The position numbers and the translations under genes were made by a program. 64,000 nt of DNA from Malacoraja senta. Taxonomy: Eukaryota. Below are positions 9,270-59,237 of this stretch, piece by piece (position 1 is the first letter of the stretch; the number at the start of each line of letters is the position of its first letter). Under the pieces are notes generated by a model that worked only from the letters and a program-made list of their open reading frames with translations, was not told the origin of the DNA and made no database searches. The DNA lies in NCBI GenBank assembly GCA_038087875.1, contig CM075996.1, positions 4,280,001 through 4,344,000 on the forward strand, in the 5' to 3' direction.

Positions 9270-9726
9270 GGCAACACAAGCAGGTCGAGTGGTAGAGAAG
9301 GAATACGGTATGTTTGCTTTTATTTGTTGACGCATAGTCAGGAAGTCACGAGCAGCTTTAAGGGGCTTTGCTTAGACCCCATCTGGAGCACTGCTTACAG
9401 TTCTGGTCGCCTCACTACAGGAAGGATGTAGAGGCTTTGGAAAGGGTGCAGAGGAGGAGGCTTAGAACGGAGACGAGGAAACACTTTTTCTCACAGAGAG
9501 TGGTGAGTCTGTGGAATTCTCTGCCTCAGAGGAGGTGGAGGCAAGTTCTCTGGATGCTTTCAAGAGAGAGCTAGATAGGGCTCTTAAAAATAGCGGAGTC
9601 AAGGGATATGGGGAGAAGGCAGGAACGGGGTACTGATTGGGGATGATCAGCCATGATCACATTGAATGGCGGTGCTGGCTCGAAGGGCCAAATGGCCTAC
9701 TCCTGCACCTATTGTCTATTGTCTAT
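9270..9726 (+). mobile_element. CR1-type LINE fragments
   Basis: [29 protein letters not shown] joined to the 3' end and tail. Confidence 0.85.
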
Positions 9727-10367
9727 CAGAATGATGTGTGCTGCCCCCTTCATGTTCCTTGCCTTCAACTTCCAGAAGTCATCAATGACCAGAAATATTA
9801 CATAAAGACTGCAGCTATAACATCGGATCAGAGGCTGGGATCCTGCAGCAAATGGCCTACCTCGTGCCATCCCAAAGCCCTCTTGCCATCTCACACCCTT
9901 CCCACCATCTGCATGGAACGTCAAGAGAATTATGGAATTCTCCCTCTATACGTCTGGAAGAGTATAGCCGCAACAGCATGCAAGAACCTAGAAACAATCC
10001 CACTTCACAAGCACCACAGTAAGTATTCATTCACTTCACCACGGGCACGCTGTAGCTGCAGTGTGCAGCGCACACAACTGCAGTTGCTCGCCTTTGCTAC
10101 TTCAACAGTACATCCACAACATCACCACTCGTAAGTACCCCTCCAAGTCACATACATTCCGAATTGGAAATATTTCACCGTTCCCATGTTCAAATCCTGG
10201 AACACTGTACGCTGCAGCATTGTGGGGGCACTTTCACCAGAAGGACTGCAGTAGTTCAAGGTGGCGACTCCCATAACGAGTCCTAACCTCAACAACAAAG
10301 GTCACATCCTCAAAGATCAACAAAGGCCAAGGCTAGAGTATCCTGCACCAAGCTACCCACTTCCTAA

Positions 10368-10574
10368 TGGGCCTGTCCCACTTAGGCGACTCTTTAGGCG
10401 ACTTCCAGGGACAAGTTTTAATAGAATTCACCTACCACATCTGGGGACAACCTACGACAGCACCTACATCAACCTACGACAGCAAAAATTGTCACCACCG
10501 TCGCCAAAGATTTTTCAACATGTTGAAAATTTTGCGGTAGTCGCCCAAAAAATCGCCTTAGTGGGACAGGGCCA
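10368..10574. mobile_element. PIF/Harbinger-type MITE
   Basis: TIR TGGGCCTGTCCCACT (imperfect); TAA TSD. Confidence 0.8.
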
Positions 10575-10941
10575 TAATGCCCTCAAATCATCTGCGAGGC
10601 ACATCCAGATAGACAATAGACAGATATGATGGAATGATCTCCAGTTGCCTAGATTAGTCCAACTCCACTCTCGTCTGCAAACCATCTATCATACTTAAAT
10701 TTCTTTCCACCAGTAATAGATCTGCATGGATGCTTTTTTGATGAAAATATTCACAACTAGAGCAAAGGGCATGGAGATCCGATGGGAATGAGGACTCGAG
10801 GTACAAGTTTGGTCATGATCCCACTGAATATTGAAACAGAGATGGGTTCATTGTGCCTGCTCCCGTTCTTCAGACTCCTTCCAGTGCTCAAAATGAATGA
10901 GACCCCATGACCAACTAACATATCTCCCCTTTGGTGAGTTA

Positions 10942-11339
10942 AGGGCCTGTCCCACGGGCATGCGACTCCATGCGGCAAGCGTGACCTAACCGGAAGCGGG
11001 GGCCGTGCGGAGTTCGAGTGATCCCCGTACAGGGCCGGTCCCACCAGCGTGCGGCTGGTTCCGGCGTCGAGGCGGTGCGCACGGCCGTCGATGCGGCGCG
11101 CACGGCCGGCGATGCGGCGCGCACGACCTCGATGCGGCTGCGGGGCGGCAGGCCGTTACTGCGCGGAATTTTTGAACAGTCAGTTTTTCGGAGGTTCGTG
11201 CGATGTCGGGACCAGCTCCGCACAACTCCATACGGCTCCCGCGATCGAAGTGGGACCGGCCCCGCGACCTCCGCGCGGCCCCCGCTTGCGGTTAGGTCGC
11301 GCTTGCCGCATGGAGTCGCATGCCCGTGGGACAGGCCCT
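10942..11339. mobile_element. PIF/Harbinger-type MITE, GC/CpG-rich, long TIRs
   Basis: AGGGCCTGTCCCACGGGCATGCGACTCCATGCGGCAAGCG inverted at both ends; TTA TSD. Confidence 0.88.
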
Positions 11340-11482
11340 TTAGTTGGGTAATTACAGTTTTTGGCAGAAGAACCACCAAATGTCGGGTCTTACTGTTTGG
11401 CACAGCTCTATTATACAATGGAAGAATTTATTATATTAATCAATTTATACAAAAAAATAAAAGCAGAGAGAACATTGTTTAC

Positions 11483-11612
11483 CAGATGTTGGTCATTCAG
11501 TAGATGCACGACTCGGGATGTCCACTCTCCCATGGGCACCAAATCTGGGGAGGTTTTGTAGAGACGCAGCAGGCACAGAGCAGCACTCTGCTTCACACTA
11601 TCCATCGTATCA
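11483..11612 (-). CDS. AP2A1: AP-2 alpha exon 5 ([43 protein letters not shown])
   Basis: ORF 11411-11605; AG/GT; 130 nt. Confidence 0.92.
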
Positions 11613-12584
11613 CTGGCAACACAAAGCCAACAGATTCAAGGTCAGAAATGAATCCTGCTGTTGAAAGTAAATCAAAAACAAACAAAGATGCTGCAAATTG
11701 CTAAATTACTAAAACAGAAATGCTGGAAACATTCAACAGGTCAGGCAGCATCTGTGGATAGTGAAACAGTGAGGTTTCAGGTCTTTGCCAAAATTGGAAA
11801 AGAGGAGATGAAAAGATAGTTAAGATGTAGCGAAGGTGGCAGAGAGATCGATAGGAGTAAGTGAATATATGTGATAGGACACACAAGGGTTACCATAGGC
11901 ACAAGATGTACGGACCATCTAATTAAGTGGGTTATAGGAGTTGTTAGAGGGGTAATATTGCAGGCAAAGATGTGTAATGGGCACATTGACGCATTCAATG
12001 CTACCTCTTGTTCTCTTTGCACACATGCTACCAGATCTGCTGAGTTTGTTTCCAGCATTTTCTGTTTTTACTGCTTTGGAACATCCTAGTTAGCCTTTGC
12101 ACACAAGAAAAAGAATGCAATAAATCGAATGTTATTTTTAAATGTAATATTTAGTTAAATGAAATAAGATTTTCACAGTAGGCACGAAACACACTTATAT
12201 GGATACTCAAAGGTAGACAAAAATGCTGGAGAAACTCAGCGGGTGAGGCAGCATCTATGGAGCGAAGGAATAGGTGACGTTTCGGGTCGAGACCCTTCTT
12301 CAGACTCTCAATCCGAAACGTCACCTATTTTCCTTCGTTCCTTAGATGCTGCCTCACCCGCTGAGTTTCTCCAGCATTTTTGTCTACCTTCGATTTTTCC
12401 AGCATCTGCAGTTCTTTCTTAAACATATATGGATACTTGAGGTCTAATCAACGCTCCTTGAGCTGTCTCAAGCATTGGTTAGTCAGTATCTCAGTAGTTC
12501 GCACCCCATTCTTAACCAAATCTCTTATTTGTGCACACACTAAAATATGGACCCTCCACCCACCCCAACAAATACCTGGCAACA

Positions 12585-13110
12585 TTACAAAATGCTGGAG
12601 TAACTCCGCGGGACAGGTAGCATCTCTGGATAGAAGAAATGGGTGACGTTTCGGGTAGTGACGCTTCTTCAGACTGAGAGTCACATTGAGGGAGACACAG
12701 AGATAAGGAAGGATAAGGTGTGAAAACAAGACAACAAAGATAAGGAAGGATAAGGTGTGAAAACAAGACAACAAAGGGGATGGTGCTTCAAAGAACATGT
12801 AAGATACATAATTGTTAGCTAGGAGAAGGTGACAACGAAGCATACAGCGATAAAATGTAATCAGGGGGCAGTCAGACTGGTCGGAGAACTGGGAAGAGGG
12901 AGGGATGGAGAAAGAGAGAGAGGGAAAGCAAGGGTTACTTGAAGTTAGAGAAATCAATATTCATACCGCTGGGGTACAAGCTGCCCAAGCGAAATATGAG
13001 GTGCTGTTCCTCCAATTTGCGCTGTGCCTCACTCCGACAATGGAGGAGGCCCAGGACAGAAAGGTCAGTGTGGGAATGGGAGGGGGAGTTGAAGTGTTTA
13101 GCAACCGGGA
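12585..13110 (-). mobile_element. Penelope-like element 3' end: GIY-YIG C-terminus, 3' UTR and pseudo-LTR
   Basis: Minus strand encodes PVAKHFNSPSHSHTDLSVLGLLHC..RKLEEQHLIFRLGSLYPSGMNIDF; stop at 12935; runs into the window's most common repeat. Confidence 0.85.
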
Positions 13111-14452: not shown

Positions 14453-14857
14453 CTTTGAATTACCAGGAATGAATTGTTGGCACCTTTGGAGATTTGCTAC
14501 ACAAATTTTCCAAAAGAGATAAGAGCACAAAAAAAATGTAAATCTGGAGTATTCATTTAGATCAAATCATGGTACGGGGGTTAATGCTAACAGAATCAAA
14601 TAGTTCATGATAAATAATCATTGATGCACAGGAGAAACTTCTGTGGCCCATGTACCATGTTCCGCACAATTGCAATGACGTACACCAAAGTACACCTCAT
14701 CAAAAACCTACGGGGCTGAATATCAGAAATTTACGTTCACATCAATAAATGAGTTGATTTGACTTGTGAATGTATACACTCAAGGAAAGTTTAAGAAAGC
14801 AGCTTTCCCTGCTGTCATGGCCAATATTTCTCTCTCAAACTACAGTACTTAAATAGT

Positions 14858-15143
14858 TTTAAGAATAAGGGGTAAGCCATTTAGAACGGAGACGAGGAAA
14901 CACTTTTTCACACAGAAAGTTGTGAGTCTGTAGAATTCTCTGCCTCAGAGGGCAGTGGCGGCCGGTTCTCTGGATGCTTTCAGGAGAGAGCTAGATAGGG
15001 CTCTTAAAGATAGCGGAGTCAGGGGATATGGGGAGAAGGCAGGAATGGGGTACTGATTGGGGATGATCAGCCATGATCACATTGAATGGCGGTGCTGGCT
15101 CGAAGGGCCGAATGGCCTACGCCTGCACCTATTGTCTATTGTC
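14858..15143 (+). mobile_element. CR1-type LINE 3' end
   Basis: Same family as 20162-20688. Confidence 0.85.
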
Positions 15144-15799
15144 ATTGATGTTTAAGAAGGAGCTGCAGATGCTGGAAATTCGAAAGTAGATAAAAATGCT
15201 GGAGAAACTCAGCGGGTGAGGCAGCATCTATGGAGCGAAGGAAATAGGCGACGTTTCGGGTCGAGACCCTTCTTCAGTCTGAAGATGTTGCCTCACCCGC
15301 TGAGTTTCTCCAGCATTTTTGTCTACCTTAGTTGACACTGATGATCATTTCATTATTGTGTCTAGGACTTCACTGTGCTCAAACTGGTTACAACCTCCTC
15401 TTGCATACAGCAGCGAGCACACACTTGTTTTGTGATATTAAAGGAAAGTATTTAAAGGAATGGTCCATCTTAAGCAAGTCTGTGTGCAGCTTAATTATAG
15501 AATCAGTTTGGCTATGTTATCCTCGTTAGTTGAAGGATTTGTGACCCCCTTGTTTTTGGTTGAAACATCGAGTACAACCAGATTTCATAAAGGTAAATTC
15601 CTAATCATAAATCTTGTTCAATAGTCACGAGCTTTTCCCGATCTCTGAACAGTGAAGCTGAATGGGGTTACAAGAGGAACTAACTTGTTGACTGGTGTTT
15701 ACCAGACCCGTTTCCTTTCAATCTAACTTTCTCTGCATATAACGACCACAGCACAATGACCCTCCCCACAGTTCTAACCGAGCACAAATAAATACTCAC

Positions 15800-16770: not shown

Positions 16771-16980
16771 TAAGAAGGAACTGCAGATGCTGGAAAATCA
16801 AAGGTAGACAAAAGTGCTGGAGAAACTCAGCGGGTGCGGCAGCATCTATGGAGCGAAGGAAATAGGCAACGTTTCGGGCCGAAACCCTGAAGAAGGGTTT
16901 CGGCCCGAAACGTTGCCTATTTCCTTCGCTCCATAGATGCTGCTGCACCCGCTGAGTTTCTCCAGCACTTTTGTCTACCG
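16771..16980. mobile_element. Penelope-derived fold-back insert (inverted pseudo-LTR pair)
   Basis: ~85-bp near-perfect inverted arms; 14-bp TSD AGGAGTCAAGGGAT (16757-16770, 16981-16994). Confidence 0.85.
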
Positions 16981-17058: not shown

Positions 17059-17258
17059 NNNNNNNNNNNNNNNNNNNNNNNNNNNNNNNNNNNNNNNNNN
17101 NNNNNNNNNNNNNNNNNNNNNNNNNNNNNNNNNNNNNNNNNNNNNNNNNNNNNNNNNNNNNNNNNNNNNNNNNNNNNNNNNNNNNNNNNNNNNNNNNNNN
17201 NNNNNNNNNNNNNNNNNNNNNNNNNNNNNNNNNNNNNNNNNNNNNNNNNNNNNNNNNN
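17059..17258. other. Assembly gap (200 N)
   Basis: Run of N. Confidence 1.
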
Positions 17259-17401: not shown

Positions 17402-17765
17402 ATAGACAATAGACAATAGGTGCAGGAGTAGGCCATTCGGCCCTTCGAGCCAGCACCACCATTCAATGTGATCATGGCTGATCATCCCCAATCAGTACCC
17501 CGTTCCTGCCTTCTCCCCATATCCCTTGACTCCGCTATTTTTAAGAGCCCTATCTAGCTCTCTCTTGAAAGCATCCAGAGAACCCGCCTCCACCGCCCTC
17601 TGAGGCAGAGAATTCCACAGACTCACCACTCTCTGTGAGAAAAAGTGTTTCCTCGTCTCCGTTCTAAATGGCTTACTCCTTATTCTTAAACTGTGGCCCC
17701 TGGTTCTGGACTCTCCCAACCTCGGGAACATGTTTCCTACCTCTAGATCCCCTCTCATCCTTTTT
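17402..17765 (-). mobile_element. CR1-type LINE 3' end
   Basis: ORF 17492-17758. Confidence 0.88.
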
Positions 17766-20161: not shown

Positions 20162-20688
20162 TAAAACATTCTTGCTATTGAGGGAGTGCAGCGTAGGTTT
20201 ACAAGGTTAATTCCCGGGATGGCGGGACTGTCATATGCTGAGAGAATGGAGCACCTGGGCTTGTACACTCTGGAGTTTAGAAGGATGAGAGAGGATCTCA
20301 TTGAAACATATAAGATTGTTAAAGGTTTGGACACGCTAGAGGCAGGAAACATGTTCCCGATGTTGGGGGAGTCCAGAACCAGGGGCCACAGTTTAAGAAT
20401 AAGGGGCAAGCCATTTAGAACGGAGACGAGGAAACACTTTTTCTCACCGAGAGTTGTGAGTCTGTGGAATTCTCTGCCTCAGAGGGTGGTGGAGGCAGGT
20501 TCTCTGGATGCTTTCAACAGAGAGCTAGATGGGGTTCTTAAAGATAGCGGAGTCAGGGGATATGGGGAGAAGGCAGGAACGGGGTACTGATTGGGGATGA
20601 TCAGCCATGATCACATTGAATGGCGGTGCTGGCTCGAAGGGCCAAATGGCCTACTCCTGCACCTATTGTCTATTGTCTATTGCCTATT
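20162..20688 (+). mobile_element. CR1-type LINE 3' end with (CTATTGT)n tail
   Basis: ORF 20186-20590 CR1 RT C-terminus (TRGHSLRI, FFS.RVV..WNSLP); near-identical copies near 9460, 14860, 17402(-), 58866. Confidence 0.9.
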
Positions 20689-23750: not shown

Positions 23751-26360
23751 AAAGCCGAGCAGCTAAAGGAAGAACCGTTGGATAATGGAGAGAAGGGACA
23801 ATCTCACTGGAGTTTTGTGTGCTGAGACTTCAAATGGCTTGCAGCCTTTTGAGTGTGAACAGTGGTACTTTTTCTATGGTTAAAAAACAAAAACTGGCTT
23901 CATAGCAGAGTGAAGTTTACACAGTGTTTCCACGAGCCAGCGAATTCCTGGTAGAAGTGCACATTTCTCCGTAACTTTGAACTCTGTGCCGTTCCACTGA
24001 TGTTATGTAACAACCAGGAACCACCTGCTTGTAACTGGACCCTGCCTGATCTTTTCCCGATTAGCTTGTGTTTCTCAGGGCTGTTGGCCTTGAGATGGTG
24101 GAAACCAAACAGCAGGCTGTTAAAATACTCCAGGCCTAAATACTTGGCCGAGGCTGAGCTTGTTACTCCTGTTGATTGCGACAAAGTCCAGTTAACTACA
24201 GAGTGGAGGAGCGACTTCACCTTGCTTGTGTGAGACAACACACACACACACACAGAGCTGACCGTGGCAATCTTCACAACGCTAGCCATATTAAACAATT
24301 GCAAGTTATTAAAGAATACCTGTGTGCGAATACGCTGTCTTCTGCCATCCCAAGCTATCCGGATCATAAAAGACCTGGTCCACAGTGTGAGATGAACCGT
24401 CAATGGGATGGCTACAGGTGTCTTCTCCTCCCCTGACCTGTGAAAGACGGGGGGAGGGGGGGGGGAATGAACCTCGGTTTCCTGCGAATTGTCCTCCTGC
24501 GATCACCTGCATGTGTGTCGCTTGTGATTCCCGCCAAGGTTGCATTGTCTGCATGTCTTTCCAGCTTAATCATGAAGAATGGGACTTAGTGAGGCTTGCT
24601 CACTCAGGGATGAGGGTGCATTATCAAGAACTGACTGGGGAAGTTGGAGATGTAGGTATGGCAGCCTGAAGAAGGGTCTCGACCCCCCAACATCACCCAT
24701 TCCTTCTCGCCAGAGATGCTGCTGCCTGTCCCGCTGAGTCACTCCAGCTTTATGCGTCTATCTTGGGCATGGTAGCCATTGGGTGGGTTGGTCTCTTGAA
24801 CGTGGGGTTGATATTTTTGGGTCACGGCGAGAATATGCCCACCACATTGATCACAGTTTTCGTTGTAGCGGCCAGTCTCATCCCCAGTGGTAGATCCCCC
24901 AGCTCCAGAAGTGTGATTCATAGACAGTTGTCCCTGTTTAACCCTAACCCCTGAGCAGTGGGAGATGGGAATCCCCTACCCATCCCCACCTCACTGCTGG
25001 CCGGCTGGGTTTCAGCGTTTCCCAGGTAGTTAACCAGAGGTCATCAGCTCTCCTCAAACCATACACCCCCCCAAGCTTTGGTAAAGAGTTCTACCTTTGG
25101 ATTCCTGTAATCTCCCCCACTCCTGCCCCAAGGCTTATTTTCTTCAGAGAATAGCCTGTCCTTTTATTAACACACCCTCTCCCAGCGCATGGCCACCTTT
25201 CCGTGCAAGTTTCATCTCCAGGGTACAGAGAGGATGGAGAGTTGTGTAGAGTTATCCTTGCCTCACTCCCACTGGGGCAAAGAGTGACAAGAGCTCGACA
25301 ACACCAAGCAGAAGGCAGAGGCAGCAAAGAGCAGGTGGGAAGGAGATGGTTCCCCCTCCACCTTCCTCCCTCCTCACTTCCTTGCCCCATCCATCTCTCC
25401 CACTACCTCGCTCTCCTTTTCCCGTCCCCTTCCACCGATATCCCTTCCTCGAGCCTCGCATTTCATTCTTCTCACTATCTTGCATCCTTTTTGTCTCCTT
25501 TATATCTCCAGCCTTTAGAGTCATTGAGTGATACAGTGTGGAAACAGGCCCTTCGGCCCAACTTGCCCACACCGGCCAACATGTCCCAGCTACACTCGTC
25601 CCACCTGCCTGCCCTTGGTCCATATCCCTCCAAACTGTCTTATCCATGTACCTGTCTAACTAAATTTGTCGGCTACTCCGTCCATCTGACGATCAAAAAC
25701 CTTTCTCACCCGTACCCACCTATCACTTGCCAGGCCTTGTCCCACCCCCAGCTCTTCCAGCTTTCTCCCCCCACCCCACTCCCATCAGTCTGAAGGGTCC
25801 TGACCTAAAAACATCACCCATCCATGTCCTCCAGAGATGCCGCCAGACCACCTGAGTTTCAACAGCAGTTTGTGTATTTTTCTCTGCTTTTATTAGAAGT
25901 CTGATTTATATATCTTCCAATTGTGTATTCTTATTGCGGCATAATTAATCTCAGTTCGTGTTTGCTGAATTATGAGTTAACGCTAACTATCATTGTGCTG
26001 ACTGGAAAGTGTTAAAAATGTTTGGAAAGAGAGAAGTGTAATTATAATCCTCCTTTCCCTGTGAGACATTAACCACAGTTAATAGACTTTTGGATGTTAT
26101 GCAATCGACTGTGTTAGCTGTAATGTTCCAGTGACGCAGAATGAATGGTTCTTTGAACAGGAATCGGCTTCATCTGGCGTGGTGCCAGTGCTGGTTACTG
26201 GCACAAAGGTGAAGTGCCTGCAGTGAGGGGGAGAGTTGGGGTGAGCTCGGCTTTCCAGTACTGATGATTGGAAGGTGTTTACTGGAGTGGGGTTTGCAGA
26301 CTGACACAGCCAGTGAGGGGCTCTGTGTGGGGGGGAATGTTGGAGGTTCTTGCCATGCTT

Positions 26361-26478
26361 CTTCTTCTTGCGTATGGCGTGCACAGCCTAAAGTTGTAGG
26401 ACAACTTGTTCTATTTGATCTTATTTGATTGTGCACGCCGGATTGATTGCATTCGTGAAGGTTGCAATCTTCCACCCC
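26361..26478 (-). mobile_element. Second copy of the HDV-headed retroposon, ribozyme internally deleted
   Basis: TSD CTTGCCATGCTT at 26349-26360 and 26479-26490; near-identical body; same 5' start GGGGTGG. Confidence 0.85.
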
Positions 26479-28113
26479 CTTGCCATGCTTTGTTGACAGC
26501 ATTGTAGCATCACGGAGATGTTTGAGCTGCTATTAGCTACAGTCCAGTATTGAGCTTTAAAGCTGTGATATTCCTGCCAAGTACCATGTTATCTCCTGAA
26601 CCTGCCCAATCCAATCCACCATTGCCCAGGCAGTTCCAGTTGCTCTATGCTTCTTGCTTTCAGAGTGAATCAATGAGTCAGGTTGACAGGAATGGGCTGT
26701 TTTTGGTGTTGTTGCCTCGTGAACTGGGAACATCAAACTTGTGATCTCTGGCTGTTCCTGGGAAATCTGTATTGAACTTTTATTTCTCTGCTGCCACACA
26801 ATGCTCCCAAACACCCCTTTACTGGAAAAAAAAAGCTTCACAATGGCATGAGAAATAAGTTGCAGATGGATCTGAAGAAAGGTCTCAACCCGAAACATCA
26901 CCCATTCCTTCTATCCAGAGATGCTGCCTGCCCCGCTGAGTTACTCCAGCATTTTGTGTCTGTCTTTGGTGTAAACTAGCATCTGCAGTTGCTTCCTACA
27001 CAAGTTGTAGGTTTTAAGTTTTTAAATTCTTGTTTAGTACTAACGCAGCTGTCTCATTATACCAAACCTAGGTATTGTTATCATGCAGCCTGAATATGTG
27101 GTTTATTCTGGGGGCGGTTGCTAAATCTCCACCCTTTCTGCATCCCAATGTTCCCGAGCTAGCCTGGCCCATCCAAGTATCATTCAAGTGGGCTCAGTGC
27201 TGTGTGGCGGCATAATTGGGGTCCCATACCTGAGCCTTGGTGATCTCCCGTGAGGCTGCTGCAGAGATCATTGCCATGATGCACTCAATCTAAGCCTGAT
27301 CATTAAGGACACACTCCCCAAGCATACCTATGACTCGGCTTTTTTTAACTGATTATTAATTTTAATGTTCAACATGAAATGTTCCAATGTTGAATGAAAC
27401 CACCAGTATAATGTTGAATGGTTCTATGTGCCTGTAATGCTGCTGCAAGCAAGATTTTCATTGTACCTGTACCTCACTATACTTGTGCATAGGACAATAA
27501 ACTCGACCTGACAAAACGTGCAGTAACTATCTCTGGGATAACACAGTAAATGATATGACAAAAGCAAATGACTGCAGCTAACCAGGAATAAAACAAGAAA
27601 ATGCTGAAAATACTCAGCGTTTGTAGAAATGAATGTTTCACGTCAGTGATCTTTGACCAGAAACATTCAGTTTCTTCATGGATGCCGCCAGACCTGTTAT
27701 GTATTTTCAGCATCTTATGTTTTTACATTGGTGTGTGATATGAGTTGCTCAAGGTCAATTGATGGAAACTGAAGGAAAACACACAGGTGGCGCAGCGGTA
27801 GAGTTGCTGCCTTACAGCACCAGGGACCCAGGTTCGATCCTGCCTACGGGTGGTGTCTGTACGGAGATTGTACGTTCTCCCCAGGACCTGGGTTTTCCCC
27901 GGGTGTTCCGGTTTCTTCACTCATTCCAAAGATGTACAGGGTTGTAGGTTAATTTGTCTTGGGTAAAAATTGTGAATCGTGCCTAGTGTGTAGATAGTGA
28001 TAGCGTACTGGGATAGCCAGTCAGCGCAGACTCAGTGGGCCAAATGACCTGTTTCCTCATTGTATTTCTAAACGAAATGGAGCAAATGGATAGGTGACGT
28101 TTTAGATCTCGAC

Positions 28114-32349: not shown

Positions 32350-33303
32350 TCTTTTATACAGAGGCTACATTGCAAGATGCAAACCATTGGTTGGCCGCAA
32401 AAATAGGATGGCTGGGTTACAGTTTGCCAAGAAGTACTTATAAGAGCAACCACAGTTCTGGAAAAAGGTCTTGTGGACAGATGAGATGAAGATGAACTTA
32501 TATCAGAGTGATAGCAAGAGCAAAGTATGGAGGAGAGAAGGAACCGCCCAAGATCCAAAGCATACCACCTCATCTGTGAAACACGGTGGTGGGGGTGTTA
32601 TGGCCTGGGCATGTATAGCTGCTGAAGGTACTGGCTCACTTATCTTCATTGATGATACAACTGCTGATGGTAGTAGCATAATGAATTCTGAAGTGTATAG
32701 ACACATCCTATCTGTTCAAGTTCAAACAAATGCCTCAAAACTCATTGGCCGGTGGTTCATTCTACAGCAAGACAATGATCCCAAACATACTGCTAAAGCA
32801 ACAAAGGAGTTTTTCAAAGCTAAAAAAATGGTCAAATCTTGGGTGGCCAAGTCAATCACCCGATCTGAACCAAATTGAGCATGCCTTTTACATGCTGAAG
32901 AGAAAACTGAAGGGGACTAGCACCCAAAACAAACATAAGCTAAAGATGGCTGCAACACAGGCCTGGCAGAGCATCACCAGAGAAGACACCCAGCAACTGG
33001 TGATGCCCATGAACCGCAGACTTCAAGCAGTCATTGCATGCAAAGGATACGCAACAAAATACTAAACATGACTACTTTCATTTACATGACATTGCTGTGT
33101 CCCAAAATGGGGGGACTATGTATGAACACTGCCGTAATTTCTACATGGTGAAATCAAAATGTATAAAAATGGCCTTTATTACAATCTGACAATGTGAACT
33201 TTAACCACATGTGATTTTTTTCTATTACAAATCTCAAATTGTGGAGTACAGAGGCAAATAAATACATGATGGGTTTTTGTCCCAAACATTATGGAGGGCA
33301 CTG
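32350..33303 (+). mobile_element. 5'-truncated, frameshifted Tc1 transposon of a second family
   Basis: ORFs 32471-32878 and 32730-33065 (WTDE, KHGGG, QQDNDPKH, SPDLNQIE); right TIR ends GGAGGGCACTG. Confidence 0.9.
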
Positions 33304-35581: not shown

Positions 35582-37185
35582 CAGTGACTTGCAAAAGTTT
35601 TCATACCCCTTGAACTTTTCCACATTTTGTCACGTTACAACCACAAACGTAAATGTATTTTATTGGGATTTTATGTGATAGACCAACACAAAGTGGTGCA
35701 TAATTGTGAAGTGGAAGGAAAATGATATATGGTTTTCAATTTTTTTTACAAATAAAAAACTGAAAAGTGTCGCGTGCAAAAGTATTCAGCCCCCCTGAGT
35801 CAATACTTTGTAGAACCACCTTTCGCTGCAAGTCTTTTGGGGTATGTCTCTACCAGCTTTGCACATCTAGAGACTGAAATTTTTGCCCATTCTTCTTTGC
35901 AAAATAGCTCAAGCTCAGTCAGATTGGATGGAGAGCGTCTGTGAACAGCAATTTTCAAGTGTTGCCAGAGATTCTCAATTGGATTTTGGTCTGGACTTTG
36001 ACTGGGCCATTCTAACACATGAATATGCTTTGATCTAAACCATTCCATTGTAGCTCTAGCTGTATGTTTAGGGTCGTTGTCCTGCTGGAAGGTGAACCTC
36101 CGCCCCAGTCTCAAGTCTTTTGCAGACTCTAACAGGTTTTCTTCCAAGATTGCCCTGTATTTGGCTCCATCCATCTTCCCATCAACTCTGACCAGCTTCC
36201 CTGTCCCTGCTGAAGAAAAGCATCCCCACAGCATGATGCTGCCACCACCATGTTTCACAGTGGGGATGGTGTGTTCAGGGTGATGTGCAGTGTTAGGTTT
36301 CCGCCACACATAGCGTTTTGCATTTAGGCCAAAAACTTCAATTTTGGTCTCATCTGGCCAGAGCACCTTCCTCCACATGTTTGCTGTGTCACCCACATGG
36401 CTTGTGGCAAACTGCAAACGGGACTTCTTATGGCTTTTTTTCAACAATGGCTTTCTTCTTGCCACTCTTCCATAAAGGCCCGATTTGTGGAGTGCACGAC
36501 TAATAGTTGTCCTGTGGACAGATTCTCCCACCTGAGCTGTGGATCTCTGCAGCTCCTCCAGAGTTACCATGGGCCTCTTGGCTGCTTCTCTGATCAATGC
36601 TCTCCTTGCCCGGCCTGTCAGTTTAGGTGGACGGCCATGTCTTGGTAGGTTTGCAGTTGTGCCATACTCTTTCCATTTTCGGATGATGGATTGAACAGTG
36701 CTCCGTGAGATGTTCAAAGCTTGGGATATTTGTTTATAACCTCACCCTGCTTTAAACTTCTCCACAACTTTATCCCTGACCTGTCTGGTGTGTTCCTTGG
36801 GCTTCATGATGCTGTTTGTTCACTAATGTTCTCTAACAAACCTCTGAGGCCTTCACAGAACAGCTGTATTTATACTGAGATTAGATTACACACAAGTGGA
36901 CTCTATTTACTAATTAGGTGACTTCTGAAGGCAATTGGTTGCACTGGATTTTATTTAGGGGTATCAGAGTAAAGGGGGCTGAATACTTTTGCACGTGACA
37001 CTTTTCAGTTTTTTATTTGTAAAAATATTTGAAAACCATGTATCATTTTCATTCCACTTCACAATTATGCGCCACTTTGTGTTGGTCTATCACATAAAAT
37101 CCCAATAAAATACATTACGTTTGTGGTTGTAACGTGACAAAATGTGGAAAAGTTCAAGGGGTATGAATACTTTTGCAAGCCACTG
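35582..37185 (-). mobile_element. Full-length Tc1 DNA transposon with long (~210 bp) IR/DR terminal repeats
   Basis: CAGTG..TTGCAAAAGT TIRs at both ends; transposase ORF; inserted in a CR1 fragment. Confidence 0.95.
35800..36807 (-). pseudogene. Tc1 DD34E transposase (MKPKEHTRQ...), premature TGA at codon 22 (36742-36744)
   Basis: HTH, GRPPK, W.DETK, QQDNDPKH, SPD.NPIENLW motifs in ORF 35800-36717. Confidence 0.9.
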
Positions 37186-39339
37186 TATATCTCCACATCT
37201 ACTCTATCCAAGCCTTTCACTCTTCTGTACTCACAATACTGTGAGACCATTCTCGGAAAACACCCGATTGCTCAAATTCACAGAAAAGTTAAACTAAGTA
37301 TGACTGCATACATTAAAAAAAATCTAGAAATCTGAAATAAAAGTTTAAAAAATGCTGGAAGCACTTCCGCAGGTCAGCAACAGTTGTGGAAAGAAAAGTA
37401 GAATTAATGAATTGGGTTGAAGTTCCCTCATCAGAACTGTTTTTATTTATAATATAAGGCCGCCCTGGCTCATCCAAAAATATCCATCTCAGGATTTTTT
37501 TAAACAATTGCTCATCTATACGAGTGTTGCAAGGACTGGCTTTTCTGTAAAGAACTTCCCTTTTTCAGAATTAAAAGGATTGGACTATGATGACAGTTTG
37601 CACGGTTTAAATTCATCATAATCTAAACCTTTTAGTTCTGAGAAGTGCTTTGAGAGCTGGATGTTATGAGGTGGTAAGAATAGCCTTCTACTGCCATAAA
37701 TAAAAATAGCTCAAATGAAAGGACTTGAAGCTGATACATTCATTTCAGACTAAAATTGAAAGAGGTAACTTAGACAAGTTATTGGTAAAAAGGATCTGAT
37801 GGTCTGGAGAAATTGCAACAGCCCCTCAAAAAATGGTTGAGTCTAGGGAAAATTAAATCTACAAAAAGGAACAAAATGCAAAATACTGGAGAAATTCAGT
37901 GGGTCAGGCAGCAACTGTGGAAAGAATTGATAGGCAATATTTGGGGTTGGTATCATTCTTCAGATTCAACCCTGTGCATTCACTCTAGATGCCATCTGAC
38001 GTGCTGAGTTCCCTTTGCATTTTACACAGGACTCCAACATCTGCAGTTCCTTGCGTCTCCAATCAAGAGAAAGTGCTTCGATTCGGTTTCACTCCCTGCA
38101 AATGCTGCCTGATCGGCTGAGTTATTATGTGCATTTTTTCTTCCAATGCTATGTCCTGATATTATACTGCAGTGGTATTGGTATATTATTGTTAGGTGCA
38201 CCAAGAGGCACTTTGTGTAGGAATGAACTGCAGATGCTGCTTTACATCGAATGTAGACACAATAAATACTGGAGTAACTCAGTGGGTAGGGCAGCATCTC
38301 TGGAGAAAAGGAACAAATGTTGTTTTGGCTCGAGACCCAACTTCAGTAAATGAAACATTTTTGTTTTCCATGTTACCTGGAAATCATACCGTATTATTAT
38401 TTTATAATAATTATAATCACTATTGTTTATTGTACAATTATTGTTTAGTTGGACTATAATAGTTTATTTAATTTAATTAGTTTTTTTATATTCTGATCTC
38501 TATTGTTGTTGATAATGGGGTTTATAAAGTATTATGTTATGCTGCTGCATGTAAGAATTTAATTGTTCGGAACATATGCCAATAAAACACTCCTGACTCT
38601 GTTGACTACGAAGACACAAAATATTGGAGTAACTCATTAGTAAGGGTAACGTTATTGATTAGTACGGGTGTCAGGGTTTATAGGGAGAAGGTGGGAGAAT
38701 GGGGTTAGGAGGCTGTAGCCTCCCTTTGTAGCCTCCCATCTGTAGCCTCCCTTTGATCTAGTATTTTGTTGGTTCACATGCTTGATCAATGGTGTTTTAT
38801 CATTAATGTTTTATTATTATTAATGTTTAGTGTTTTCTGAGTCATTCGTAACTGTCACTGTATGTCATGTCGTTACTTGTGGGCGGAGCACCAAGGCAAA
38901 TTCCTTGTATGTGAATACTTGGCCAATAAACGTACTTACTTAGATCAGCCATGATTGAATGGCGGGAGTGGACTTGATGGGCCGAACGGCCTAATTCTGC
39001 TCCTATTATTTATGACATGACCTTATTAGCACATCATGGAGTGCAAAATAGAAAATTGTGCAGAATACTGTGTTAAAGCTACAGAGAAAGTGTAGATAAA
39101 ATAAAAATAAGGTGCAAGTACCTTAATGCAACTTTTGCACTTTTTTTTACAAGTGAATTGAACACGTAGGACATCGGAGCGGTGGTGTAGTTTGTAGTTT
39201 GTTCTGTTTGCTGTTTGTAGTTTGTACTGTTTGTAGTTTGTTTGTTTGATTTTTTGCACAAAGTCCGCGAGCATTGCCACTTTTCATTTCACTGCACATC
39301 TCGTATGTGTATGTGACGAATAGACTTGACTTGGTGAGT

Positions 39340-39393
39340 GGGGTGGGAGATTGCGACCTTCACGTGGTCCGCCCTGTTTCGACCAACGCAATC
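39340..39393 (+). ncRNA. Compact HDV-like self-cleaving ribozyme (predicted)
   Basis: P1 GGGGUGG/CCGCCCU with G1-U wobble; P2 GAUUGCG/CGCAAUC; P3 ACC/GGU; L3 UUCACGU; mini-P4 U(UUCG)A; J4/2 CCAA. Confidence 0.78.
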
Positions 39394-39490
39394 AACCCGG
39401 CGTGCACAATCAAATAAGATCAAATAGAACAAGTTGTCCTACAACTTTAGGCTGTGCACGCCATACGCAAGAAGAAGAAGAAGAAGAAGT
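39340..39490 (+). mobile_element. ~150-bp non-autonomous retroposon with HDV-like ribozyme head and (GAA)n tail
   Basis: TSD CTTGGTGAGT at 39330-39339 and 39491-39500; second copy at 26361-26478. Confidence 0.85.
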
Positions 39491-39614
39491 CTTGGTGAGT
39501 GTGGAGGATGGAGCTGGGTGCTGGGGCTGGTGCAGTGGCTCAAGGCTGCCCTCTGCCGCCGCCTCCCCAAGGCCGCAAGGCCCGCGCTGCCCTGGCAACC
39601 ACCCGGACGTGAAG

Positions 39615-39690
39615 AACCACCCGGAAGTGACCGATCCCCCCCCCCCTCGCCTATATAAACGCGTCACTTCCTGTGCGCGGCCTCTTCCAC
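39615..39690 (+). promoter_or_regulatory. RPSA: RPSA core promoter: ETS/GABP site CCGGAAGT (39621-39628), TATATAA (39652-39658), reverse ETS CACTTCCTG, TCT/5'TOP initiator CCTCTTCC (~39681), in a CpG-rich region
   Basis: Motifs read directly; typical ribosomal protein promoter layout. Confidence 0.8.
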
Positions 39691-39717
39691 GCCATACTTC
39701 CACACGGCGTTGTTCAC
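39682..39717 (+). other. RPSA: RPSA non-coding exon 1 (5'TOP UTR)
   Basis: Pyrimidine start, ACGGCGTTGTTC resembles vertebrate RPSA exon 1, GTGAGT donor at 39718. Confidence 0.75.
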
Positions 39718-40854: not shown

Positions 40855-41060
40855 AGGTACACAAAAATGCTGGAGAAACTCAGCGGGTGCAGCAGCATCT
40901 ATGGAGCGAAGGAAATAGGTAACGTTTCGGGCCGAAACCCTTCTTCAGACCCGAAACGTTACCTATTTCCTTCGCTCCATAGATGCTGCTGCACCCGCTG
41001 AGTTTCTCCAGCATTTTTGTGTACCTTCGATTTTCCAGCATCTGCAGTTCCTTCTTTAAC
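40855..41060. mobile_element. Penelope-derived fold-back insert in RPSA intron 1
   Basis: Inverted arms; 14-bp TSD AATCTTCCAATCCA (40841-40854, 41061-41074). Confidence 0.85.
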
Positions 41061-42160: not shown

Positions 42161-42279
42161 TAACCCAGTTATGTTTTGGGACGGTGTCTGTTTCATTTTT
42201 GTAGTGTTCCTAACTATCCTGAAAGCGTATCTTAATGATCAGACTAACATTTTCAATGTTCTTTTTTTTTTACCCCTCC

Positions 42280-42434
42280 TGCACATTCTTAAAACTCAGT
42301 GCTACGGTCAGTTGCTGGCCAGTGAACTCTTGAGTGTCGGAGATGTGCTACAGTAAAAGTGGCAGGTATTTCGCTAACACCACAAGAGTCCTCGACTTGA
42401 TGAGTGGGGTTTGATGATACTTCCTGCCACAGAG
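42280..42434 (+). ncRNA. SNORA6: H/ACA snoRNA, SNORA6-like (RPSA intron 2)
   Basis: TGCACAT...ATGTGCT 5' hairpin with TTAAA/GTCGGA pocket; hinge ACAGTA; GGCAGG...CCTGCC 3' hairpin; terminal ACA; known host gene. Confidence 0.88.
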
Positions 42435-43559
42435 ACTCTAGAAGTGAAGTACGGCACTTGATGCTGCATATAGAGGTTCTGCTGACAAGTGGATTTGAGT
42501 TGTGAAGAGATGGCATATTTAGCTTTAAACCATCGTGGTGTGATTGGAATATGGATAAGACGATTTACATTGTTGAATAATTCTTTAACTCCATCTTATC
42601 CCCAAATTGTGTGCACTCTGAAATTTTTCAACTCGTGTGCAAGGCTGTTTGACCACCAGAATTCCACGGTGTAATCTACTAGACAAATTTCCATTTGTAA
42701 AATGCATATCATCCTGAGTGCTTTGTATTCCCATCACACTGCTCCATTGGCTGATGTCCACCTTTAGCACTCCTTATGGGAGATGGACTTAAACTTTCAT
42801 TGAATTCTCCAATCCCTCTCTTAAAAAACACTGTAACGTTGTGTGACCATGTGACAAATTAATCTCTTTCTGTGGCTTTTCCGATTTTATCTGGTAATAG
42901 TTTGCAGCGTTTTGTGTTAAAGGTGTATTGTATTTCCAATTGGTTTTGAGACCGCCAGACGATCATAAATCCTGTCTCAAGGGTTTCCTAGCATCTTGGC
43001 CCATTGTATTCCCAGAGCTTTACTGAGCTTCTCAAACATCATGAGCAAATACATCATCTCCATATGGAGAGTTACTCGAGTATCTGCACCCACCTCCCCT
43101 TCAGGGAGTGTATTCCAGAACAATGAGAACATAACTGTGTGCAGCCTTCATGGACGGTGTAGTTCATGGAGTTGGTGGGGGATATCACACACCATGTTCA
43201 TGTTTTCCAAAGGCAAAAATAATACAGATAAACATGATGTCTGATTTGCATTCTGTTGTACTTTTAGCATTCTGTTCATAGATCTTAAGCTGCCATCCAT
43301 CAATGCTGGAATTTTGATTAAGAACCTACTCTTTCCAAAGTTCAGCCATTGAAAACGCGCACGTGTGAAATGAATGGCAATGGAGCTTTGGGACCTGGTG
43401 CTGGAGTGGATGGAGGGACAGTAAACTATTGCCCAGGTTGTCAACAGAAAGCTGGCTGGTTAGAGTTAGCGAGGGGGACAGAGAATCATACTGTCGGATG
43501 CCCACTTTTGGTGGATTTGTACCGTGTTCAAGAATTGGTTCCGCTTTGTTACGTTTTGA

Positions 43560-43909
<350 letters not shown>

Positions 43910-44788
43910 TATGTTTTTGTACCTGATCCACATTTAGATGCTGATGACACAGCAGTATCAGTGTGTGAAGAAGGGTTCCGACCCGAAACGTCACCCTTTC
44001 CTTCTCTCCAGAGATGCTGCCTGTCCCGCTGAGTTACTCCAGCATTTTGCGTTTATCAGTAGTATGAAGTATGAAAATATTTGAAAGCTAATAGTCGCAG
44101 CGGATTCAATGGTGATTCCTACTGAGCGGGAATTGCATGATTGAAGTTTATGGAGATTTAAAGAATGGGATATTGGGTTTAGTTTAGACATACAGCATGA
44201 AAACAGACCTTTCTGCCCACGGAGTCCATGTTCACCCGTTCACACTAGTTCTACGTTATCCCACTTTCTCATCTACACACTACACTGTAGGGGCAATTTT
44301 GCAGCGGACAATTTTCATCCACAAACCTACACATCTTTCGGATGTGGCAGGAAGCAGGAGCACCCGGAGGAAACCCATTCGGACACAGTGAGAATGTGCA
44401 AACTCCTCAAGAACAGTACCCGATATCAGGATTGAACAAGCATCCCTGGCGCTGAGAGGTGCAGAGAACAAGAGGTGCAGCTCTAGCAATATCATCATGA
44501 TGGTACTTTAAGGTGCCTTACAGTAGATAATTGTAAATGAGGGCTCAGCAGTGTAGAGAGGAGATGTTATACATGGATACAAAATGCTGGAGTAACTCAG
44601 GGGGACAGGCAGCATCTCTGGAAAGAACGAATGGGTGACATCACCCATTCCTTCTCTCCAGAGATGCTGCCTGTCCCGCTGAGTTACTCCAGCCATTTGT
44701 GTCGACCTTTGATTTAAACCAGCATCTGCAGTTCTTTCCTACACAGACATGTTATACAATTGTTTAACGACTGGCTTTCTGTCCTCAG

Positions 44789-45034
44789 CGCGCGGTCCTA
44801 AAGTTTGCTGCTGCCAGTGGTGCCACCCCGATTGCTGGACGGTTCACCCCAGGTACATTTACCAATCAGATCCAGGCTGCTTTCAGGGAGCCCCGCTTGT
44901 TGGTTGTAACCGATCCTCGCCAGGACCACCAGCCCTTGACCGAAGCATCCTATGTCAACATCCCCACTATTGCCATGTGCAACACCGACTCGCCCCTCCG
45001 CTATGTGGATATCGCTATTCCATGCAACAACAAG
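44789..45034 (+). CDS. RPSA: RPSA exon 4 ([38 protein letters not shown]...IPCNNK)
   Basis: AG/GT; 246 nt. Confidence 0.96.
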
Positions 45035-45707
45035 GTACAGTCTTTCATTGCAATGACTTCGCCTTTGCAGTTTTTACATGGTTGGAAACTTGCTCCTTGG
45101 GATAACGCAGTAAATCCCCATCTTGATCAGTACGGGGTGTCAGGGATTATAGGGAGATGGCAGGAGAATAGGGTTAGGATGGAGAGATCAGCCATGATTG
45201 AATGGCGGAGTAGACATGATGGGCCGAATGGCCTAATTCTACTATCACTTATGATCCTTCTGGCAATGTTTTCTCTGACTAGTGCTGGCCAAGATTATAA
45301 ACACTCCCCCTCTCGCTTTTGAGTAGCCGGATCAGCTGAGACCTTTCAGCAATCCTAGCTGGAATAAAAATATAAGATAAATCCTATCAGACAAGCGCTG
45401 GTGAGGAAAATGGATGTGTTCTGTGTCAATGTAGCATCCATTTTCAAATGCAATGTTAGCATTTGTACCACGGTTAATTTATTGGCCATTGGCAGCACTG
45501 TAATCGATTGAGCATGAACGTACTAGGAAATGCAATATCATTGAACGCAGCGAGTTCATGGAATTCTGATGTGAAGAACTGACAGATGTTCTGCATGCAG
45601 ACGTTCGGGATGTTGTGCTGCATTGTCTCCAAACAATTTCATAGCCTCAGGACTTGGTTTTAGAGAGAGGGTAGCAGTTTGGGTCGACTCTGGTTTGGAG
45701 GCAGATT

Positions 45708-45857
45708 TGCACATTGTTAGAACCTGGAGCTGAGGCCAATGTGGCCGATGAACTCTGGGTGTAGGAAATGTGCTACATAATCATGCAGGTACCTTTAACA
45801 TTGCTCGAGTCTATATGGCTCACTCAGTGAAGCTTTGTAGTAATACCTGCTACATCA
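45708..45857 (+). ncRNA. SNORA62: H/ACA snoRNA, SNORA62 (E2)-like (RPSA intron 4)
   Basis: TGCACATTGTTAGA...GGCCGATGAACTC..GTGTAGG..ATGTGCT as in E2; H box ACATAA; GCAGGTA...TACCTGC stem; ACA 45852-45854. Confidence 0.85.
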
Positions 45858-49160: not shown

Positions 49161-52100
49161 AGAAACAGATTTCTAAATGTCTTGCTTATTTAATAATCTT
49201 CTTCTTGCGAATGAAACATAAACCAAAGGAATAGTTAGATCTCAAGTTGGGTGTTGAGCAGCCAGGTTGTTGTCTCTGTGTCAATGTCTGCCAGGCACTG
49301 AGCTCCATTTGGTGGGTGTTAGAGCGGGCACCCAGAGATGACATGGTTGTTCTGCTCTGCATTCACAGGCTGGGCTCTGGCGGAGCCCCCATCTCCACAT
49401 GCTGGCATTGAAACACCCAACTCCAGTACCAAGTCAGTTGAGCTTCACGTTTCGGCCCGAAACGTTACCTATTTCCTTCGCTCCATAGATGCTGCTGCAC
49501 CCGCTGAGTTTCTCCAGCATTTTTGTGTACCTTCTGAGCTTCACCCATGCTCCTCTGGGGAGGTCAGACCCTGGACAGCTTTTATCTGGTGAAGAGATGT
49601 ACCTGTGTAATGGAGATGAGGATGACTTATTTAATGACTGAATATCTCACCGTACTCTGGGGGACAGGCCTCGTGGTCGGCTGGCCACAGTGTGACATAG
49701 TTCTTCAGTCTGAAGAAGGGTTTCGGCCCGAAACGTTGCCTATTTCCTTCGCTCCATAGATGCCGCACCCGAGCTTCTCCAGCACTTTTGTCTACCTTCG
49801 ATTCTCCAGCATCTGCAGTGCCTTCTTGAACACAGTGTAACATATATCGGCAACTGGGTTCTTAGTCTCTGTTAACAATCACTGTGAGGTCAGGCATGCA
49901 AAGAGTGATTGGCAAATGCGGTGAATTAGTTTGAAGTGTTCCTTGATCCCAACAATAGAGATACCTTGGGTGGTTTCAGTCTCGTGGGTATATCTGATCA
50001 GATAGTGAGGTCCGGCTCTCCACTCATTACTCAATTAGTACTGGTACTGTCTCAATGCCAGTCACTTCCTGCAGTCTGTCAAGAGGGTTTTATTGTCATA
50101 CGACTAAACACAACAACATAAAGGTTCTATATATATAAAACAAACAAACACCTGTCCCCTGAGCCTTGGTTTGCATTCCCTTACAAGACTTGTCGTGGCT
50201 GAAGGGGATGGCTCTTATATAAGGGAAGTGGATCCCACCAGTGTGTTAAGGCCCCTTGGCTTTGAGGGTGGAGAGTGTTTATCTGGAGTCTCATGACTTA
50301 AAACAGAATTATTTCTGAACAGCACAGCCTGGTATTTTCAACTTGATTTTCATCAGAAGAGAACTGGTTGAATCCAGTGCGGTATGGCAGAGGTCGCCGG
50401 GAACCTGCTGAGTGGTACCAGTGTTTTTGTCCCACTTGTCCACATCAACAGGCAGAGGATGTATACAAATATGGATCGTCTGCAGTCAGCAGCTGGCTAT
50501 AACGGGACTATCTCATTACATTAGCAGATGGCTGGGGTGACACAGTCAAAGATCAATTATAAATATAGCAACGTGTACACGTGGATAGCTCGGTGCTTGA
50601 TTGAACTGGTTCCACTGCATGAAAATGCAAGCTGCTGCTTAGTCAAAAAAATTGTGCATCGCGTCTGCAAGATGCCGCGGGTTTGAACGGCCGTTGGTGT
50701 CACAAGTTGAGTGCTGTAGTTGTGGGATTGAAGGCTTGTAATGTTGGGTGTGCAAGGTTACTGCTTGGCACGTCCTGGCTGTATCGCTATTAATGGGGCA
50801 GGTTTGCTGACATTTCTTCACCTGCTTGGGTTACTTTCTCTTCCAAAGTTAGGAATCTAAATGCGTTTTCAGGTGATTTGTGAGGACGGCCTTTATAATT
50901 AATTAACTAACATCTCTGGTAAATTGAGAAGGGCTTTTATATTAACGAACATCTCTGGTGAATATCGGTATAATAAAGACCCATTGCAGTAATTATACAA
51001 ATTGCAAAGGATCAGATGCTTATGAACTGCTTTTAATTTCACTCTTTCACAGTAGTCTACATTCACAGTGATATGAATATTGATTTCTCTAACTTCAAGT
51101 AACCCCTGCACTCCCTCTCCATCGCTCCCCCCCCCCCCAAGTCGCATCAGGTTCCTGTTCTCACCTAGCAATGGCTAACAATACCGTTTCCTTTATCACC
51201 ATTACTTTTTTGCATATCTTTCATTCATTTGTTTTATATCTCTACATCACTGTCTATACATCTCCGTTTCCCTTTCCCCAGACTAGTCTGAAGAGTCTCG
51301 CCCCATTCCTTCTCTCCAGAGAGCCTATCCGGCTGAGTTACTCCAGCTTTTTGTCTATTAAGCCCCATAGTCTGCAGGTTATCAATAGTTGAAGTGGTTT
51401 TGAAAAGACAATGGTTTATTCAGCCTTATCTTCTTCAATAGATAGTGATAAAGGGCACTGCCCATTCCACCTCCTGTCTCTTCACAGTAAATGACTGCGA
51501 GTGTGTTAATGTCGAGTTAACCTCATGGTCCCGACACAATGCGGCCAGCCCCGTCTGCAGAAGAGGACCTTGGAAGAACTGTATTCCGCTCGCCACCAGC
51601 CCGAATCACATCCATTCTTTTGCGCCTTGCAATATAGAGCTGGAAAGTGGCAAGGATGAGTGTGAGGGGAGTGGAGAAGCAAAGGACAATAATGTCTGGT
51701 TGGCATCTTCTACATTCTCCTTTCCAGCATGGTAACCTTTCATCCAAATAGAGAGAGCTCCCAGGATATTTAAACAGGGAATCATTGTCCATTGCTGGTT
51801 GTTTTTTCATACTTGTACCCACATTGCAAATGAGGCTTGGAGCACTCACACTCACACTCCCTTGTCTGTTGTTAATGAATGGAGAGTACTTTTGTCAATG
51901 ACCTGTGCAGACCGAGCAAAGACACAGAACCATCCCAGCTTGGGTCAGTTTCAAAAACTGGGCCAAACCTCAACCATTTGTGCAAAGACCCAAAATTAGA
52001 CCCCGACTTCAGGCAAGGACGCCAAATGCTTAAAGCTGGTAGGAATGTAGTTTAATATTTCACCTCTTTTAAAGGTGTGCATCTGTTAATCACCACACTG

Positions 52101-55278: not shown

Positions 55279-55478
55279 NNNNNNNNNNNNNNNNNNNNNN
55301 NNNNNNNNNNNNNNNNNNNNNNNNNNNNNNNNNNNNNNNNNNNNNNNNNNNNNNNNNNNNNNNNNNNNNNNNNNNNNNNNNNNNNNNNNNNNNNNNNNNN
55401 NNNNNNNNNNNNNNNNNNNNNNNNNNNNNNNNNNNNNNNNNNNNNNNNNNNNNNNNNNNNNNNNNNNNNNNNNNNNNN
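55279..55478. other. Assembly gap (200 N)
   Basis: Run of N. Confidence 1.
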
Positions 55479-58865: not shown

Positions 58866-59237
58866 CATAAGATTGTTAAGGGCTTGGACACAATACAGGC
58901 AGGAAACATGTTCCCGATGTTGGGGGAGTCCAGAACCAGGGGCCACAGTTTAAGAATAAGGAGTAAGCCATTTAGAACGGAGACGAGAAAACACTTTTTC
59001 TCACAGAGAGTGGTGAGCCTGTGGAATTCTCTGCCTCAGAGGGTGGTGGAGGCAGGTTCTCAGGATGCTTTCAAGAGAGAGCTAGATAGGGCTCTTAAAA
59101 ATAGCGGAGTCAGGGGATATGGGGAGAAGGCAGGAACAGGATACTGATTGGGAATGATCAGCCATGATCACATTGAATGGCCGTGCTGGCTCGAAGGGAC
59201 AAATGGCCTACTCCTGCACCTATTGTCTATTGTCTAT
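58866..59237 (+). mobile_element. CR1-type LINE 3' end
   Basis: ORF 58884-59147. Confidence 0.88.

Follow-up and report, generated by a model that had tools for sequence, protein, structure and literature searches.

The stretch analysed here, a window of 64,000 nucleotides, is vertebrate DNA. Its genes are represented by plus-strand mitochondrial-carrier exons (19.4-23.7 kb), an exon of the ribosomal protein S2 family (44.8-45.3 kb), and, within this ribosomal-protein gene, three snoRNAs of the SNORA62/SNORA6 family (42278-45857). The ribosomal-protein and mitochondrial-carrier genes look like RPSA and SLC25A38, and the abundant repeats of the window presumably resemble those of cartilaginous fishes. 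Two assembly gaps of 200 N are present (17059-17258 and 55279-55478). A Tc1/mariner transposase frame of 313 amino acids (35803-36741, minus strand) lies between 150-nt inverted repeats (35650-37116), a second DDE fragment is located at 32685-33062, and a young repeat of about 345-370 nt occurs in five copies that are 93-97% alike (9531-9726, 14776-15146, 17402-17746, 20310-20680, and 58867-59237). The most abundant repeat (families D1-D20) carries CTGAAGA-stem-GAAA, a minimal hammerhead-like core; this pattern matches 27 times on both strands, mostly within the same repeat (e.g., the copies at 2076, 16887, 26872, and 48426 on the plus strand and at 12303, 15277, and 40948 on the minus strand). 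Several of these copies are head-to-head palindromes (16823-16958 and 40877-41004). Minimal type I hammerheads have been reported in Penelope-like elements (PMC7761336).

Searches with blastn and nhmmer identified just two copies of a further short element in the window. Copy A (26361-26478, minus strand) represents a very short, abundant vertebrate retroposon, but it is dead and has suffered an internal deletion. It is flanked by an exact 12-bp target site duplication (TSD), CTTGCCATGCTT, at 26479-26490 on its 5' side and 26349-26360 on its 3' side; this 12-mer is found at only two sites in the window, both flanking copy A (rough chance about 1e-4). The element opens with GGGGTGG directly inside the TSD, with G1 at 26478, and ends in an (AAG)n tail (26361-26369). 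Copy B (39340-39489, plus strand) has an 11-bp TSD (39330-39340 and 39491-39501), the last G of which overlaps G1, so that its start is ambiguous by one base, and an (AAG)7 tail (39469-39489). The separate TSDs, of 12 and 11 bp, bear out the original prediction that the two are independent insertions and that copy A has a TSD and a GGGGTGG start of its own. No third copy and no partner LINE end was detected in the window, where the best other match (E 0.78, 49197-49213) is an AAG run. The elements are short, non-coding, and dispersed, with TSDs and a simple-repeat tail, as is typical of SIDEs. The insertion site of copy B is the extreme end of a different high-copy repeat (39270-39333), which has an (ACTTG)n tail. 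In the area that follows (39340-39700), a TATA-like box (about 39653) and a pyrimidine tract come some 160 bp downstream of copy B, which has the orientation of the downstream ribosomal-protein gene and could cut read-through transcripts.

The first 54 nt of copy B (39340-39393) contain a complete HDV/CPEB3-like fold, as judged by a structural descriptor and by pairing checks. All seven pairs of P1 form (39340-39346/39369-39375, positions 1-7/30-36), including a G1-U36 wobble that pairs the presumed cleavage-site G with a pyrimidine. P2 (39349-39355/39387-39393, positions 10-16/48-54; 7/7 pairs) and the 3-bp P3 (39356-39358/39366-39368, positions 17-19/27-29; 3/3 pairs) complete the nested double pseudoknot. 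The loop L3 (39359-39365, positions 20-26) reads UUCACGU, and U20, C24, and G25, which correspond to the conserved U...CG of the reverse wobble as stated in PMC6326823, are present in both copies. P1.1 is represented by the single pair C39361-G39376 (C22-G37), in keeping with the single pair or two pairs given for HDV-like ribozymes (PMC4908430). The presumed catalytic cytosine, C39383 (C44), is followed by a variable base and two adenines before the 3' strand of P2, so that J4/2 reads CCAA in copy B and CGAA in the family majority; C45 of copy B deviates from the CRRA design descriptor of PMC6326823. A P4 stem is nearly absent, as the five nucleotides between U38 and C44 leave room for no more than a single pair closing a UUCG loop, and natural ribozymes without P4, a dispensable stem, are cited in the same source (PMC6326823). 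Given the near-absence of P4, the single P1.1 pair, and two G-U pairs in P1, cleavage may be slow.

Copy B is the sole match to the full descriptor on both strands of the window, and 30 block-shuffled windows gave none; as the descriptor was drawn up with both copies in view, this control speaks to rarity rather than independence. No Rfam HDV or CPEB3 model matched, whether across the window (E cut-off 1) or around each copy (E cut-off 10). Minimum free energy folding of the 54 nt (z +0.36) counts neither way, as the method cannot model pseudoknots. We found no tRNA-related head, the first 54 nt being fully accounted for by the ribozyme fold, and ARAGORN called no tRNA gene in the window, which is a weak test for degenerate SINE heads. 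Downstream lies a 3' stem-loop domain (39399-39462, positions 60-123) that is strongly structured when folded on 39394-39470 of copy B (z -4.74; 0 of 200 shuffles as stable). In copy A the identical domain, with a 10-bp outer stem and a 7-bp inner hairpin, occupies 26376-26439. It is the presumed recognition site of a partner reverse transcriptase.

An alignment of 141 columns shows four point differences between the two copies (positions 8, 16, 48, and 57), and copy A has, in addition, a gap of 20 nt (columns 26-45, corresponding to a 39364-39385 junction). The gap takes out U26, the 3' strands of P3 and P1, G37-U38, the tiny P4 region, and two letters of J4/2. Copy A retains the 5' strand of P1 (26472-26478), now without its partner, both strands of P2 (26463-26469, and 26445-26453 together with the last two J4/2 adenines), the 5' strand of P3 with L3 positions 20-25 (26454-26462), and the whole 3' domain. 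With the 3' strands of P1 and P3, G37, and possibly C44 gone, its ribozyme cannot form, just as anticipated from the sequence. An explanation of this loss by a location in a sense intron was ruled out: copy A is on the opposite strand, and the last Mito_carr exon detected ends about 2.6 kb before it.

The junction itself, between 26454 and 26453, is less clear-cut than first described. The loss had been placed between two ACG microhomologies, and its length of about 20 nt stands. The ACG/ACG repeat, which lets the junction slide by 3 nt, exists only against the family majority G at 39384 (position 45; 52-66% of depth), whereas the letters of copy B give 0 nt of microhomology; at least 3 nt was reached in 5.7% of 3,749 simulated deletions. 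The canonical CGAA assigned to J4/2 of copy A likewise equals the family majority, but it spans the junction, and either L3 or J4/2 may be the origin of its CG.

To place the two copies in a wider context, we used contigs of four public runs from four organisms (of 24 runs listed) that could be placed on 39270-39560. Run X1 shares 87% of words and may stem from the window's own source; X2, X4, and X6 represent other organisms. The listed runs also include six of RNA or RNA-like type with small word shares (0.05-0.14), outside the four used here. Each run contributed 9,802-12,812 contigs, some of which belong to the different repeat upstream of 39333, and loose ends at 39333 pile up in all four runs. 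The 5' loose ends of the family itself pile up at 39339/39340 in all four (198, 278, 243, and 423 contigs, among the 24 of 678 loose-end rows listed), which extends the predicted defined 5' end at G1 well beyond copies A and B. In 580 of the 1,142 contigs of this pile (51%), the letter just before G1 matches T, perhaps through a target-site preference or an alignment effect. The family is high-copy; summed depth, which is not a copy number, gives a rough bracket of 1,400 to 55,000 copies. Further loose ends at 39409 and 39416, with gaps of 9-12 nt in 8 of the 32 contigs listed for this area, suggest subfamilies that differ in a 10-nt tandem duplication inside the 3' loop. Exact-pattern searches of viral, metagenome, and prokaryote genome contigs returned 0 matches each.

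Variation within the family follows the proposed fold. Private variants are probably given too little weight in the contig depth shares, and rare variants are dropped. Positions 1-15 and those beyond 87 have no listed variants, for 1-15 probably because of their proximity to contig ends, so that the 5' strands of P1 and P2 lie outside this test. Within the range covered, no variant at or above 1% was listed in the four runs at P3, U20, C22, G37, or the 3' strand of P2 (49-54). All four variants listed in the 3' strand of P1 retain pairing (G32A at 15-21%, turning U-G into U-A; C31U at 3.6-9.9%; C33U at 0.6-1.0%; and U36C at 0.1-1.3%), a weak test in that any C-to-T change on a 3' strand still yields a G-U pair. 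At the presumed catalytic C44, T accounts for only 3.1-3.8% of depth, and G25, also a catalytic position, reads A in 3.2-4.5%; both levels fit decay after insertion, because C41T reaches 3.4-5.7%. Linker positions vary more (G42A at 11-14% and C59T at 23-39%). Position 45, the equivalent of which is flipped out in HDV (PMC6326823), reads G in 52-66%, T in 20-33%, A in 14-24%, and C in about 1%.

Trypanosomes and flies are known to harbour short retroposons headed by a ribozyme, and HDV-like ribozymes are also known in a lamprey (PMC8256844, PMC13635239); the mode of action of such SIDEs has been reviewed (PMC6765202). The 263-nt NARTc of Trypanosoma cruzi, whose partner L1Tc belongs to the Ingi clade, and RIME (PMC3383444, PMC4035085) share with our family a short, non-coding, dispersed structure and an HDV-like ribozyme in the first bases. 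In NARTc, cleavage falls just before +1 and the 3' end serves the LINE reverse transcriptase, an arrangement to which we liken the present family from its sequence. The latter is about half as long; its ribozyme measures 54 nt rather than 77 nt, its tail is (AAG)n where NARTc has poly(A), and its host is a vertebrate. The R2 SIDEs and R2/R1 hybrid SIDEs of Drosophila also combine a ribozyme head with a LINE-type 3' end; they show compensatory stem changes, as does our family, and the hybrids have 14-bp TSDs (PMC3414825). The Drosophila elements are site-specific in 28S rDNA, rare, and have a large J1/2, whereas the present family is dispersed and high-copy with a J1/2 of 2 nt. In vitro cleavage is documented for the ribozymes of both NARTc and the R2 SIDEs (PMC3383444, PMC3414825). 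ORF-less bipartite LINE derivatives that consist only of LINE 5' and 3' ends, such as the Vingi-1_EE derivatives and RTESINE1/2, are known in vertebrates (PMC5786205). Among the papers listed by our literature search, none describes the ~130-nt family, which may already be catalogued under another label among the named LINE/Repbase families.

In its core, the family resembles the CPEB3 ribozyme. The CPEB3 construct (PMC6326823 supplement) and the family share the G1 start, L3 UUCACGU, and the same numbering up to position 38. Both have a single C22-G37 pair, unpaired U21 and U38, GU after the 3' strand of P1, and CGAA before that of P2 (family majority), and L3 and J1/4 of copy B equal those of CPEB3. 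CPEB3 differs in its long P4, 8-bp P2, 1-nt J1/2, and other stem sequences, and is a single-copy intronic RNA. A retroposon lineage as the source of the CPEB3 ribozyme strikes us as quite improbable, convergence on a constrained core being likelier.

Taken together, the family is probably a ~130-nt non-autonomous LINE derivative of the SIDE/NARTc type, equipped with a 54-nt ribozyme for the trimming of its own 5' end. A family copy would be transcribed by read-through from a host promoter, and the ribozyme would cut just before G1 to release a unit-length RNA. The protein of a partner LINE would then bind the 3' stem-loop and tail, and insertion by target-primed reverse transcription would leave the 11-12 bp duplication. 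Copy A would derive from an intact, G1-trimmed RNA and have lost its 20 nt between two ACG trimers, either during reverse transcription or later in the DNA. RTE, Ingi, Vingi, and R2 are the clades reported to yield ORF-less bipartite elements, with 5' ribozymes reported for RTE and Ingi (PMC5786205). Since R2 is site-specific, Vingi/Ingi and RTE are left as the likely partners; judging from the literature and from tail motifs, we give Vingi/Ingi about an even chance and RTE a somewhat smaller one, with little left for any other clade. The window contains no autonomous partner by blastn, nhmmer, and ORF domain searches, which detected no reverse-transcriptase domain in 24 of the 62 longest ORFs or in 150 of the 152 ORFs of 17.5-39.3 kb.

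A G1 5' end is by itself no proof of cleavage, as an internal promoter could fix the same base. A promoter starting at G1 might thus define the 5' end, with the HDV-like fold inherited from a parent LINE and weak or dispensable. There is precedent in L1Tc/NARTc, where the same 77 nt act as promoter and ribozyme (Pr77; PMC3383444). A 130-nt RNA would moreover be copied to its end however it was made, so that the pile at G1 does not discriminate, and copy A and several deleted contigs start at G1 without the core. The prediction had regarded numerous deleted copies with a G1 start as a sign that something else sets the 5' end; such contigs do exist, but the deleted forms listed (15 of 20 joints) are deletions of 32-67 nt that are each represented by one contig at single-copy depth (22.8-50.3). 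The amplified variants, in turn, avoid C44, U20, C22, G37, and P3 and keep P1 pairing, thus following the RNA fold, and the window holds no called tRNA gene, weak as that test is. We therefore regard the promoter reading as unlikely, although ribozyme and internal promoter are not mutually exclusive as sources of the G1 end. Less probable still is that copy A belongs to a small deleted but mobile subfamily whose 5' end is set by a promoter or generated in trans. Its exact G1 start and perfect 12-bp TSD would suit such a subfamily, as would the finding that outside P2 it has only two point differences (positions 8 and 57) from the family majority or copy B. However, none of the four runs shows the 20-nt deletion at or above 1%, and none of the joints listed (15 of 20) corresponds to the 39364-39385 junction, a comparison in which events below 1% fall under the threshold. 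Whether the deletion is private or defines a subfamily had been posed as a question, and no such subfamily is seen. Core-less forms do not appear to amplify, and private deletions are common. This pattern fits the self-trimming scheme, in which an intact RNA is trimmed first and the damage arises at the reverse-transcription step or afterwards; it agrees with the timing originally proposed for the deletion, the two times not being separable.

The compensatory difference in P2 called for similar weighing. Pair 16-48 is A-U in copy A (A16 = 26463, U48 = 26451) and G-C in copy B, as the original prediction noted, which also took it as support for a selected fold. As a comparison of two sequences it carries no statistical weight, since 254 of 500 shuffles reach the same result. 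In the four runs, position 16 is A at 99.2-99.9% of depth and position 48 is T at 99.6-99.85%, so copy A carries the common pair and copy B the rare variant, and the independent variation at the two positions that would have spoken against the fold was not found. Non-majority letters amount to only 0.09-0.78% of depth at 16 and 0.15-0.38% at 48. These low shares would suit two unrelated private mutations in copy B; alternatively, G-C could be the older pair, lost from the dominant lineage by drift through two CpG transitions with a tolerated G-U intermediate, which would likewise offer no separate proof of selection. Both changes create or remove a CpG, and the event is single and was noticed after the fact. 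Against privacy, copy B departs from the majority at just three sites within 39355-39429 (16, 45, and 48), two of which form one Watson-Crick pair, and the rough chance of such paired private changes is 0.1-1.4%. Its C45 occurs as a residual 0.7-1.1% in all four runs, as expected of a minor subfamily, and the source lineage of copy B was probably a minor one. Decay of CpGs in individual copies of a G-C ancestor was excluded, as listed transitions at other CpGs reach only 0.7-39%. The change may reflect two CpG transitions fixed in the source lineage, and a path from G-C through G-U to A-U fits as well; even then it would be compensatory. On balance, a reading without selection on this pair seems improbable, if less so than the promoter reading. 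We consider the 16-48 change one real but single covarying event, of either direction, and one that is rare and lies in copy B, so that it supports the fold less than was first claimed. The family-wide pattern of tolerated variants is stronger support for a selected fold.

Copy A is in itself ordinary, a dead end, and the ribozyme-headed retroposon design is known already; the small size, high copy number, and vertebrate host are what is notable here. In the fullest reading, which we offer tentatively and consider somewhat doubtful, this would be an undescribed ~130-nt vertebrate family, shared by several related species at a copy number per genome in the thousands to tens of thousands and moving by means of an active, nearly P4-less, CPEB3-core ribozyme of 54 nt. 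It would then rank among the smallest ribozyme-headed mobile elements, would have placed very many potential transcript-cutting sites in these genomes, and would amount to a mutational scan of the HDV core carried out by nature. According to one survey, low copy numbers characterize almost all SIDEs described earlier (PMC6740152); with a minimal vertebrate example of high copy number, it would be evident that the ribozyme-headed design can expand in a SINE-like manner without a tRNA head. The many copies would also permit a direct test of whether retrotransposition needs self-cleavage: amplified subfamilies should keep the core and private copies need not, with copy A as a useful example of the private class.
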